In this document: piece after piece, positions 31,015 through 32,503 of the stretch | How positions within the stretch are numbered: position 1 is the stretch's first letter | Layout of the letters: every line of letters begins with the position of its first letter | Assembly (NCBI GenBank): GCA_030697645.1 | Contig: JAUYPI010000003.1 | Span: forward strand, 318-64,317 | Reading direction: 5' to 3' | Origin: a bacterium | GTDB taxonomy: Bacteria; Patescibacteriota; Minisyncoccia; Phycocordibacterales; VMGT01 | Length of the DNA stretch: 64,000 nucleotides | The notes under the pieces: generated by a model | The model's database searches: none | What the model was told of the DNA's origin: nothing | The model's input: the letters and a program-made list of their open reading frames with translations, nothing else | Position numbers and translations under genes: made by a program

Positions 31015-31391
31015 CTGCCTGTATGTTTTGACTTTTGATTTTTGACAAAAAACCGACTGTCTGACACCTGACGTCAGAGCAGTCGGCCGCTTCGAACTCG
31101 CCCTCGATCCTTAACTTACATAGAGGATGAGGGAGAATGCGAGTAGTAAAAGCAATGCTGCGAGCATATACCAATATTTGTTGTTTTTATTGAGCTCGCG
31201 ATTTGCAGCCCCCAGCGCTTGCGCGGGCACTTCCTGCTCTTCCGTTCTGAGTAAGGAATGGGGATGCCTGTTATTGTGCATGGCATTGCTCCTAATCTAA
31301 GGTAAGAACTTTAAACTCACCCCGTGAGCTTACGTCACGAATATTTTATACTATAAGTATATTTTTGTCAAGAGTCAAAACATACAGGCAG
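31015..31391 (+). other. IVS-like insertion 1 in 23S (helix-9 region), AT-rich
   Basis: 18-bp terminal inverted repeats CTGCCTGTATGTTTTGAC / GTCAAAACATACAGGCAG. Shares internal TTGTCAAGAGTC with insertion 2. Carries ~57-codon ORFs on both strands; the antisense one ends in a hydrophobic helix. Confidence 0.6.
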
Positions 31392-32109
31392 AGGCATACC
31401 CAGGGAAGTGAAACATCTCAGTACCTGGAGGAAAAGAAAACAACCGTGCTTCGCACGGACATTTCGAAATATCGATATATCGAAATTTCCGCGCGGAGCG
31501 CGGCCATTCCCTTAGTAGCGGCGAGCGAAACGGGAGGAGCCTAAACCGTGCGCAGCACGGACATATCGATATTTCGAAATTTCGATATTTCCGCGCTGCG
31601 CGCGGTGTTGTACGGCAACGGCGTAGTTTAACTAGAGAAGTTACAAAGTGGTTTGTTAGCGGAATCTGCTGGAAAGCAGAGCCCCAGCGGGTAATAGCCC
31701 CGTACGCGAAAGCACGCCACCTTCTTTGCTGTTGTTCGTGAGTACCTCGGGACATGAATAGCCCGAGGGAATCTGGCAGGACTAACTGCCAAGGCTACAT
31801 ACGTGTGGAGATCGATAGTGAACAAGTACCGTGAGGGAAAGGTGAAAAGCAGCCCGGTGAGGGCGGTGAAATAGACCTGAAACCATATGCGTACAAGGAG
31901 TCGGAGCTGCCGCACCTCATTGCATTCGGTGCGGACATTTCGATATTTCGAAATATCGATATATCGAAATGTCCACCGCGCCGAGTGTAGCGAGGTGCGG
32001 CGGTCACGGCGTGCCTATTGAAGAATGAGCCAACGAGTTGTCGTTTGTTGCCCGTCTAACCGCTTGTCGCGGGAAGGCATAGGGAAACCGAGTGTTAAAA
32101 GCGCGATCG

Positions 32110-32503
32110 CCTGCTCATATTTTTGGATTTTTATTAGTGGAAGTTAACTGAAACCGCCACGTTCATGTTAAACGTAGCGGTTTATCCCTGAGTCCAAGGA
32201 AGAGCGTCTTCCTCACCTTGTGAGGAAGAACCAGATTTTATCTGGAATGAGCTTTTGAAGGAAAGAGCCTGGAACAAGGAAATAAGCAAGTGCAATACAG
32301 ATCAAAAGCGGCCAATATATCCACCTTGGGACGAAATACCCGAGAAGATAGAAAACACCAGCAACGATACCAATAATGATATGACCTTTAAGGTTCATTT
32401 TCGTCTCCAATCTCGAATGAGGTGCCAGGGGGATGGGGGGTTCTCTATACAACAAATTAGTATAAATGTATTAATTTGTCAAGAGTCCAAAAATATGAGC
32501 AGG
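32110..32503 (+). other. IVS-like insertion 2 in 23S (helix-45 region, ~E. coli 1170), AT-rich
   Basis: Terminal inverted repeats CCTGCTCATATTTTTGGA / TCCAAAAATATGAGCAGG. Internal TTGTCAAGAGTC. Antisense ORF 32213..32455 encodes a small protein with two TM helices. Confidence 0.6.

Follow-up and report, generated by a model that had tools for sequence, protein, structure and literature searches.

Classical intervening sequences (IVSs), which are excised by RNase III, are known from the 23S rRNA genes of Salmonella, Leptospira, Coxiella and alpha-proteobacteria; they turn up sporadically and are looked upon as selfish elements acquired by horizontal transfer (PMC4990558, PMC11270868). The inserts described here are similar to them in several respects: both are AT-rich sequences of a few hundred nucleotides, both sit where the tip of a surface hairpin would otherwise be (H9/H10, H25 and H45 in the classical cases), the complementary termini of both form a long stem, and both are only sporadically present. 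The ORFs known from IVSs (S23p, PF05635) lie on the rRNA strand, have no promoter of their own and only a poor Shine-Dalgarno sequence, so that they are unlikely to be expressed (PMC4990558). In the family discussed below, by contrast, the gene is antisense to the rRNA and is provided with its own predicted promoter, Shine-Dalgarno sequence and terminator. The family also differs from classical IVSs in that its cargo is variable while its termini are conserved, and in that copies occur at H31, in the 5′ leader and in the 23S-5S spacer as well.

In CPR bacteria, the rRNA genes are heavily interrupted, and the inserts that are not introns are uncharacterised (PMC11270868). Tsurumaki et al. (2024) described such non-intron inserts, the short ones at classical IVS sites and the longer ones of unknown function (PMC11270868). 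In host group and type of site they agree with the present family; however, their ORFs were annotated by Pfam domain alone, and inverted repeats, antisense promoters and small ORFs were not reported. The family would account for part of these unexplained inserts.

Type I toxin-antitoxin systems (hok/sok, tisB/istR, fst, txpA/ratA) combine the gene of a small hydrophobic peptide with an overlapping complementary RNA, and the duplex of the two is expected to be acted on by RNase III, an arrangement that the cassettes resemble. In the cassettes, the overlapping antisense RNA is given by geometry only, that is to say, by a cassette lying wholly within the rRNA unit on the opposite strand. They differ from type I systems in showing no toxin-family homology and in having cargo that is not always hydrophobic, and their "antitoxin" would be pre-rRNA. 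Mobile insertion cassettes (MICs) consist of IS-derived inverted repeats around passenger genes, which stand in place of the transposase. Like MICs, the family has conserved inverted repeats, an inward promoter at one repeat and a variable internal gene that is not related to transposition, but its members are far smaller and target only rRNA transcripts, and the searches given below revealed neither a parent insertion sequence nor a transposase that shares their ends. In Correia (CREE) elements and promoter-bearing MITEs, the repeats, once transcribed, form a stem that is cut by RNase III (PMC10969869). Correia elements are also small, with terminal inverted repeats, no transposase, sigma-70-type promoters near the ends and TA flanks in some copies; however, they are intergenic, gene-less and present in more than 100 copies, whereas members of the family number two or three per genome, lie without exception in the rRNA operon and in a single orientation, in most cases bear a complete small gene, and show only an ambiguous target-site duplication (TA on both flanks in three of seven elements).

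The window (the whole 64,000-nucleotide stretch of DNA that was analysed) comes from an uncultured Parcubacteria-type (CPR) bacterium, whose source environment is represented by the metagenome run SRR26726066, and its 23S rRNA gene is 7,475 nt long, a length of 7.5 kb accounted for by many insertions. The features of the gene and of the two inserts considered here, W_ins1 (insert 1) and W_ins2 (insert 2), are as follows.

30862–38336, forward strand: host 23S rRNA gene, from the Rfam LSU match, the bacterial LSU model on sub-regions and the mapping to E. coli
31014–31392, cassette on the reverse strand: W_ins1 element, 379 bp, replacing the helix-10 hairpin, from its arms and the Rfam LSU and E. 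coli alignment
31014–31038, unstranded: left terminal inverted repeat of W_ins1, 25 nt, 96% complementary to 31368–31392
31045–31088, reverse strand: intrinsic-terminator-like hairpin of W_ins1 (CCGACTG...CAGTCGG) followed by TTTTTT, the hairpin also appearing in the fold
31111–31281, reverse strand: W_ins1 cargo ORF, 56 aa (MHNNRHPH...), one predicted C-terminal transmembrane segment
31289–31293, reverse strand: W_ins1 Shine-Dalgarno sequence AGGAG, 7 nt upstream of the ATG at 31281
31343–31371, reverse strand: predicted antisense promoter of W_ins1, TTGACA-N17-TAAAAT, 11 of 12 matches
31368–31392, unstranded: right terminal inverted repeat of W_ins1, its inner portion overlapping the −35 box
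32110–32503, cassette on the reverse strand: W_ins2 element, 394 bp, in the helix 31 loop (E. coli ~647–650), from its arms and the LSU alignments
32110–32132, unstranded: left terminal inverted repeat of W_ins2, 23 nt, 91% complementary to 32481–32503
32151–32183, reverse strand: 3′ hairpin of W_ins2, terminator-like, with a weak U-tract
32213–32398, reverse strand: W_ins2 cargo ORF, 61 aa, two predicted transmembrane segments, with the homologue P0005
32405–32408, reverse strand: W_ins2 Shine-Dalgarno sequence GGAG(A), 6 nt upstream of the ATG at 32398
32454–32482, reverse strand: predicted antisense promoter of W_ins2, TTGACA-N17-TAATTT, 9 of 12 matches, the −10 being weak
32481–32503, unstranded: right terminal inverted repeat of W_ins2, pairing with 32110–32132

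An earlier note on this DNA had described two AT-rich, IVS-like inserts with terminal inverted repeats, and both are indeed present where it had put them, with long repeats and a GC content of 0.41–0.44 against about 0.52 in the rRNA alongside. They are IVS-like because in each a terminal stem replaces an rRNA hairpin. The arms of insert 1 have a sole mismatch and those of insert 2 have two, and all three become U.G pairs when the rRNA-sense strand is considered; in the sense-RNA folds the terminal stem closes each insert (z = −8.3 and −7.3). As for their sites, insert 1 had been assigned to helix 9, but the alignment puts it in place of the hairpin corresponding to H10 (E. coli 150–176), directly 3′ of a reduced H9, so that the former assignment named the adjoining helix. 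Insert 2 had been assigned to helix 45; according to the Rfam bacterial LSU and E. coli alignments, it lies instead in the hairpin at E. coli ~637–655, which is H31/ES9L in the numbering of PMC2441807. Insertions at H10, H31 and H45 are tolerated by E. coli (PMC2441807).

The relationship of the two inserts is evident from their ends. The TTGTCAAGAGTC box that had been noticed in both occurs exactly twice in the 64 kb, once in each insert, with 0.16 copies expected by chance, and on the opposite strand it reads as the −35 hexamer TTGACA. The termini had been called unrelated, which does not hold: the right ends agree at 75% of the positions over 40 nt, and both are variants of the consensus CCTGCTCAAATTTTTGGAC, which is common to seven elements at seven sites. 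Across these seven elements the terminal stem is 94% paired, with compensatory changes in 9 of 22 pairs, a result reached by none of 500 shuffles. Moreover, the extra pairs of the stem are U.G wobbles, which are possible solely in the rRNA-sense strand, and in four elements the sense stem is more stable than the antisense stem by 5–8 kcal/mol.

The seven elements belong to three hosts; five of them were found by pattern searches beyond the window, in two other Parcubacteria-type organisms, and the common origin suggested for the two inserts is thereby borne out, both being members of a family present elsewhere as well. A metagenome scan for the box and the terminus gave six matches, of which four lie in the rRNA operons of the two other organisms; one of these organisms was recognised in a genome scan as Parcubacteria RIFCSPLOWO2_01_FULL_48_18, known from Rifle samples and carrying two copies; the other, the Ga03152xx metagenome organism, is host to three elements; and a fuzzy search of the fetched loci brought the family to its total. 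All seven elements are inside rRNA transcription units and antisense to the rRNA, at H10, H31, E. coli ~227–236, H45, the 5′ leader, E. coli ~2657 and the 23S-5S spacer. At the site of insert 2, where the window has 415 nt, the other two hosts have about 100 nt and no insertion, a comparison across deep divergence only; homologous 23S genes without the insertion, which the earlier note had proposed to look for, thus exist. In the Ga03152xx strains, all three elements are present in identical copies with one SNP in total, and therefore a dN/dS calculation is impossible.

Beyond these hosts, no family member was found at 18 other CPR 23S loci (about three organisms, reached through homologues of the LAGLIDADG gene that lies in the 23S gene of the window), the terminus scan of viral contigs gave no match, and neither did BLAST of the two inserts against plasmids and phages. 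Exact look-ups of the neighbouring proteins brought no strain free of the inserts to light: L15 had no record, and the S8 contigs end ahead of the 23S gene. Two loci with the box only (L004 and L007) were not counted as family, both the partner repeat and rRNA being missing, nor were two with terminus-like 21-mers (L010 and L011), which have no partner repeat or rRNA. Taken alone, the box is an ordinary promoter in two unrelated contigs.

Within the elements, the opposite strand appears to be laid out as a small transcription unit. The −35 TTGACA abuts the inverted repeat and begins at position 22, counted from the outer end, in six of the seven elements, whose promoters have 9–12 of 12 matches; the −10 lies another 16–18 nt inward, and a leader, a Shine-Dalgarno sequence and one small protein gene follow. 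In every ORF-bearing element (6/6), the Shine-Dalgarno sequence is 4–8 nt upstream of the start codon, and the ORF, of 34–79 codons, ends just ahead of the terminator. This terminator, an intrinsic-type hairpin just within the far repeat, is predicted throughout the family of seven; its T-run is clear in five elements and weak in insert 2 and another element (G_3). The remaining element, of 158 bp, has a 12/12 promoter and a strong terminator and no ORF. The termini and the promoter end are the common property of the family, and the cargo gene changes from element to element.

As to the cargo, the ORFs listed for the two inserts do exist, and the suggestion that the antisense ones are genes is strengthened by promoter, Shine-Dalgarno sequence and terminator, and by the homologue of the 61-aa ORF elsewhere; they look like real genes. 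The 57-aa sense ORF of insert 1 and a second 56-aa ORF lack a Shine-Dalgarno sequence at a proper distance and appear spurious. Each window insert can be read as an antisense unit that would be expressed, with a promoter, a Shine-Dalgarno sequence, a small ORF for a membrane protein (56 aa in insert 1, 61 aa in insert 2) and a hairpin, and the 56-aa ORF is called as a gene in the independent Logan assembly too. Transmembrane segments are predicted in four of the six cargo ORFs, each of at most 61 aa, and the other two encode soluble proteins; in the helix-45 element of RIFCSPLOWO2_01_FULL_48_18, the 34-aa peptide combines a hydrophobic helix with a charged tail behind it. The 61-aa protein is related to P0005 (62 aa) with 41% identity over the full length (E = 3e-4 in the library search, 2e-12 pairwise). 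The P0005 gene, on a contig that is probably Parcubacterial, is free-standing, equipped with a promoter, a Shine-Dalgarno sequence and a terminator of its own, and without inverted repeats or an rRNA antisense partner. A word-index search with the 61-aa peptide found nothing, a two-sequence profile recovered P0005 alone, and a protein-pattern scan of species-representative genomes, a set without the source genome, had no match. The other five cargo ORFs have no detectable homologue beyond near-identical copies in the same organisms, the sensitive search having been made with the 61-aa peptide only. The HMM searches that had been proposed matched no toxin or other known family: all six cargo peptides gave only noise against Pfam, NCBIfam, PADLOC and PHROGs. 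Among the ORFs of the two inserts there is no match to PF05635 (23S_rRNA_IVP, the four-helix-bundle S23p domain) and no homing-endonuclease domain (LAGLIDADG, GIY-YIG), and Rfam gave no match for either insert, group I ribozyme included, on either strand at E <= 1.

Judged by anatomy, family, distribution and orientation, all of which are read from sequence, the two inserts are probably members of a small family of cassettes that reside in rRNA operons and have terminal inverted repeats as their boundaries. In the rRNA-sense direction, a terminal stem of about 20–27 bp would replace or extend a surface hairpin of the pre-rRNA, and, by analogy with classical IVSs, the insert may either be cut away by RNase III or persist as a tolerated expansion. 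We infer that RNase III excises the cassettes and that they are transcribed and translated in the antisense direction; the expression of the cargo may also be inversely coupled to rRNA transcription. The family is best read as having spread horizontally among Parcubacteria-type bacteria into varied sites of the rRNA unit. Its terminal inverted repeats are shared between several copies at different sites, as in a MITE or a MIC, and some means of mobility may be presumed. There is no consistent target-site duplication among the seven elements: the TA flanks are one-sided or missing in inserts 1 and 2, and since TA is palindromic, such flanks could merely extend the stem. No transposase-bearing partner with the family ends was found in the window, the fetched loci or the metagenome scan, a result compatible with a diverged partner, the scan having demanded exact matches.

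It could be argued that the antisense RNA itself is the product, forming a duplex with pre-rRNA that aids removal or decay of the insert or tunes 23S maturation, and that the ORFs are incidental. The ORF-less 158-bp element with its perfect promoter and strong terminator fits this, and there is a precedent in Helicobacter pylori, where an antisense RNA is reported to participate in the RNase III maturation of the 23S-5S precursor (PMC6582327). However, all six longer elements join a well-spaced Shine-Dalgarno sequence to an ORF of 34–79 codons, one ORF (61 aa) has a homologue at the protein level, and a derivative by internal deletion would retain promoter and terminator in any case, because neither is more than about 60 nt away from an end. 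We regard this explanation as unlikely.

The earlier note had proposed a toxin-like or maintenance module, which in its fuller form would be a type-I-toxin-antitoxin-like or rRNA-sensing device: the hydrophobic peptide would be the toxin, and the complementary pre-rRNA or the excised IVS the antitoxin. Duplex formation and RNase III cleavage would silence the toxin; its mRNA, being fully complementary to pre-rRNA, would accumulate only upon a drop in rRNA transcription, and the toxin would be made only then. The cassettes would thus be devices of regulation or addiction that are tied to ribosome synthesis, with membrane peptides as effectors of growth arrest or persistence, through which the bacterium or the selfish element would directly read the growth state. 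The four peptides of at most 61 aa with a transmembrane segment speak for this, as do the 34-aa peptide, shaped like many type I toxins, and the position within the rRNA unit, which by geometry assures a fully complementary, highly expressed antisense RNA. Nevertheless, the cargo proteins, conservation of which had been expected of such a module, are mutually unrelated, two of them are soluble, the ORF-less element retains its perfect promoter and terminator, Pfam, NCBIfam and PADLOC gave no toxin-family match, and the sole homologue of the 61-aa protein stands free of repeats and rRNA partner. What is conserved is the layout of the cassette and not a toxin, and therefore the proposal, unsupported in its original form, is kept as a minority hypothesis of rather low probability.

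Quite improbable is the explanation by ordinary, vertically inherited IVSs, or unrelated ones that converged, in which promoter, Shine-Dalgarno sequence and ORF have arisen by chance in AT-rich sequence. H45 and the vicinity of H9/H10 are classical IVS sites, and promoter-like hexamers do come easily in such sequence, a region-wide scan having found 3 against 1.7 expected from shuffles, barely above chance. Against this stand the termini and box, near-identical at seven non-homologous sites (element ends 86–97% identical) although the 23S cores of the hosts are only about 80% identical, the constant −35 offset in six of seven elements, each with Shine-Dalgarno sequence and terminator, and the homologue of the 61-aa ORF. 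An assembly artefact or chimera is hardly credible: the contig belongs to a metagenome-assembled genome and rRNA regions are prone to misassembly, but the left junction, base for base, and most of insert 1 recur in the independent Logan assembly, so that insert 1 is not an artefact, and related elements are present in several independent assemblies of other organisms.

If the preferred reading of a cassette family is followed, a defined anatomy becomes available for some of the non-intron inserts in CPR rRNA. It suggests a type of mobile element that apparently uses rRNA transcripts as a safe haven and ferries complete small-protein genes, with strong antisense promoters predicted to fire into the most transcribed operon of the cell. 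If confirmed, a gene-carrying, antisense-expressed class would be added to the bacterial IVSs, and with it a system in which sense-antisense conflict, RNase III processing and small membrane proteins could be studied in organisms with minimal genomes. There is also a practical bearing on rRNA annotation and small-ORF calling in CPR genomes: because annotation pipelines mask rRNA genes, the genes of the cassettes are missed.

The 23S gene of the window has further insertions. A third insert bounded by inverted repeats, at 33788–34335, was not filed with the family because the box, the promoter and a convincing ORF are all missing. Helix 45 of this gene holds another, small palindromic insert, and the group I intron and the LAGLIDADG_2 ORF are located elsewhere in the gene than inserts 1 and 2.

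Both inserts in the window 23S gene (31014-31392 and 32110-32503) are bounded by inverted repeats where the earlier note had put them, the arms being 25 nt and 96% complementary in insert 1 and 23 nt and 91% complementary in insert 2. The box described as common to them, TTGTCAAGAGTC, is present in both and nowhere else in the 64 kb. The termini, formerly called unrelated, are related, with 75% identity between the right ends over 40 nt. In a structure-aware Rfam alignment, the stem of insert 1, proposed to lie in the "helix 9 region", aligns to the H10 hairpin after H9 (E. coli 150-176); insert 2, previously assigned to helix 45, falls in a hairpin spanning E. 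coli ~637-655, which is H31 in the numbering of Yokoyama and Suzuki (H10 149-157, H31 638-646, H45 1170-1178; PMC2441807). The two sites match expansion segments ES4L and ES9L, and engineered insertions at H10 and H31 are tolerated by E. coli (PMC2441807). In sense-RNA folds each insert is closed by its terminal stem (z = -8.3 for insert 1 and -7.3 for insert 2).

The ORFs listed earlier for both inserts are present as described, and no usable Shine-Dalgarno sequence was found for the 57-aa sense ORF or the alternative 56-aa frame. On the minus strand the box reads GACTCTTGACAA and includes a -35 hexamer right against the inverted repeat, and the cassettes are composed as follows:

Insert 1, minus strand: promoter TTGACA-N17-TAAAAT, 11/12 matches
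Insert 1, minus strand: Shine-Dalgarno AGGAG, 7 nt 5' of the ATG at 31281
Insert 1, minus strand: 56-aa ORF, the last 17-21 residues a predicted transmembrane segment
Insert 1, 31088-31045, minus strand: terminator-like 16-bp hairpin, then TTTTTT
Insert 2, minus strand: promoter TTGACA-N17-TAATTT, with a weak -10
Insert 2, minus strand: Shine-Dalgarno GGAG, 6 nt 5' of the ATG at 32398
Insert 2, minus strand: 61-aa ORF with two predicted transmembrane segments
Insert 2, minus strand: 15-bp hairpin, weak U-tract

A metagenome-wide scan for the exact box plus terminus gave six loci, four of them in rRNA operons of two organisms other than that of the window; no transposase-bearing partner with the family ends was found by it. 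The other two (L004 and L007) were rejected as members, having the box without a partner repeat. There TTTTGACTCTTGACAAA (L004 1699-1726, L007 969-996) is apparently an ordinary promoter in unrelated GC-rich metagenome contigs, with no inverted repeats or rRNA, so the box alone is not diagnostic. One further host, Parcubacteria group bacterium RIFCSPLOWO2_01_FULL_48_18 (P48), was identified by genome scan and has two copies in its 23S; the third, G, is represented by metagenome contigs Ga03152xx and ERZ272476xx alone. After fuzzy searches the family comprises seven distinct elements in three known hosts:

Window: H10 and H31
P48: E. coli ~227-236 (158 bp, without ORF) and H45
G: some 320 nt 5' of the 23S; E. 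coli ~2657; 23S-5S spacer

The G element at E. coli ~2657 (L005 7124-7483; about 7641-8002 in the reverse complement of L015 9001-18982) is surrounded by a larger ~780-nt insertion and appears to be nested in other inserted sequence. All seven elements are antisense to the rRNA, an orientation to be expected, since a terminator in the sense orientation would truncate the rRNA. The -35 begins at position 22 in six of them, and in these six the promoter agrees at 9-12 of 12 positions. Every element has a hairpin ahead of the far repeat, with a clear T-run in five.

The inner 12 bp of the stem (CAAATTTTTGGA) are nearly invariant across the seven elements, while the outer 7 bp vary, even inside one genome, with complementarity kept. 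Pairing holds in 94% of stem cells overall, and compensatory changes occur at 9 of 22 pairs, which none of 500 shuffles reached; U.G wobbles carry the stem into the box and pair in the rRNA-sense strand only. This pattern points to selection on the pre-rRNA stem as an RNA structure, in the manner of IVSs; its inner part is additionally sequence-constrained or recently shared. In four elements the sense stem is 5-8 kcal/mol more stable than the antisense stem. On this evidence, all of it computational, the elements are probably, with moderate confidence, a horizontally spread, IVS-like cassette family resident in rRNA operons, in which the terminal stem would make insertion into pre-rRNA harmless, either through excision by RNase III or through tolerance as an expansion. 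The observation of the earlier note holds with two corrections, and its interpretation was right in part.

As for the cargo, ORFs of 34-79 aa stand 4-8 nt behind a Shine-Dalgarno sequence in the elements that have one; that the product is the antisense RNA itself, as might be thought of the element without ORF, is unlikely. The peptides were expected to be conserved across related insertions, and the six cargo ORFs proved mutually unrelated, with no matches in Pfam, NCBIfam, PADLOC or PHROGs. A transmembrane segment is predicted in four of the six and two look soluble; an rRNA-coupled type I toxin-antitoxin module is a rather improbable explanation. When 1.84 billion representative proteins were scanned in full with HMMER, the 61-aa protein had one homologue, the 62-aa P0005, with 41% identity over the full length without gaps and a common C-terminal motif L-x-KLIPD-x-IW. 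Its gene is free-standing, 3' of efp, with its own promoter, Shine-Dalgarno and terminator, and neither inverted repeats nor rRNA were found near it; the adjoining channel gene is 40-47% identical to ones beside Parcubacterial 23S genes. Judged by this free-standing, full-length homologue, at least the 61-aa cargo represents a real protein family, and what the elements carry would seem to be small genes of an ordinary kind.

The spread of the cassette family between hosts would be horizontal. The element ends are 86-97% identical across hosts, the 23S cores of which have about 80% identity to each other and about 75% to E. coli; chance or convergence is quite improbable. The comparison with homologous 23S genes proposed earlier bore out an insertion, the insert 2 site being without such an insertion in P48 and G; no strain-level empty site was found, this comparison being between hosts with ~80% identical 23S cores. 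No members were found in 18 further CPR 23S loci, so the family is not ubiquitous. TA flanks three of the seven elements, ambiguously since TA is palindromic, and no unambiguous target-site duplication was found among the seven. An assembly artefact is scarcely credible, as an independent Logan assembly matches the insert 1 left junction exactly.

Mobile insertion cassettes have insertion-sequence architecture with cargo in place of transposase. The cassette family would resemble these and insertion sequences in its inward promoter beside one repeat. Correia elements, with promoters in MITEs and RNase III cleavage at inverted repeats (PMC10969869), are a precedent for both properties. The S23p ORFs of classical IVSs are on the sense strand, without promoter and probably silent (PMC4990558), so that antisense, self-promoted and variable cargo is the new feature. 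In G, a free-standing 424-aa gene with a 23S_rRNA_IVP (PF05635) domain, which normally goes with IVS ORFs, lies about 4 kb from the 23S (L013 5293-6567).

The window contig comes from a MAG (NCBI proteins MDP37348xx). Its ribosomal-protein operon (S8 ... S5, L15; 27314-30240) has no uL30 ORF between S5 and L15, a CPR gene-order hallmark, uL30 loss being attributed to CPR (PMC9297842). Directly downstream are the 23S and 5S (38607-38712), then purD, FtsW, a GT4 glycosyltransferase and a sugar transferase, in agreement with Taylorbacteria-like loci. With no 16S gene anywhere in the 64-kb window, this arrangement is in keeping with a CPR bacterium whose rRNA genes are unlinked. The 23S gene (30862-38336) measures 7,475 nt, where the model has about 2,925 nt. 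Mapped to E. coli rrlH, it shows at least 12 insertions, a group I intron and a LAGLIDADG_2 gene among them, and it holds about 4.5 kb of inserted sequence in all. A heavy insertion load of CPR rRNA genes is documented (PMC9297842); insertions occur in 82% of CPR 23S genes, the non-intron ones left uncharacterised (PMC11270868). On the whole gene the archaeal LSU model scores best in Rfam (1311 bits), on sub-regions the bacterial one; the archaeal ranking is probably artefactual, caused by the numerous insertions, rather than a sign of archaeal origin.

Four of the large insertions are:

35140-36129: E. coli ~2255-2263, Rfam group I intron 35306-36029
36343-37206: E. coli 2473/2475, LAGLIDADG_2 ORF 36449-37096
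37265-37550: E. coli 2532/2534
37612-37956: E. coli 2594

A third inverted-repeat-bounded insert, GC-richer (33788-34335, E. coli ~1704-1773), has 24-nt arms, 88% complementary, and no box, promoter or convincing ORF. Another of ~230 nt (34590-34818), without ORF and with a perfect 23-bp hairpin at 34731-34782, is placed precisely at E. coli 1931/1932, a position classically occupied by homing-endonuclease introns. Finally, a second repeat family, unrelated to the cassettes, consists of nine composite palindromic inserts (~60-95 nt, three subtypes), confined within the 64 kb to the 23S transcription unit, with H25 and H45 among their sites:

30776-30840, 31442-31503, 31544-31605, 31909-32001, 32779-32866
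33108-33167, 33496-33584, 34452-34533, 38155-38238

In each, two GC-rich hairpins enclose an AT-rich core of (A/T)TCGA(A/T)AT 8-mers. The inserts have the look of MITE-like expansion elements restricted to rRNA, and analogous TTCGAAATTCGAA-type inserts are present in the P48 23S (L008 4200-4260, 4440-4530).
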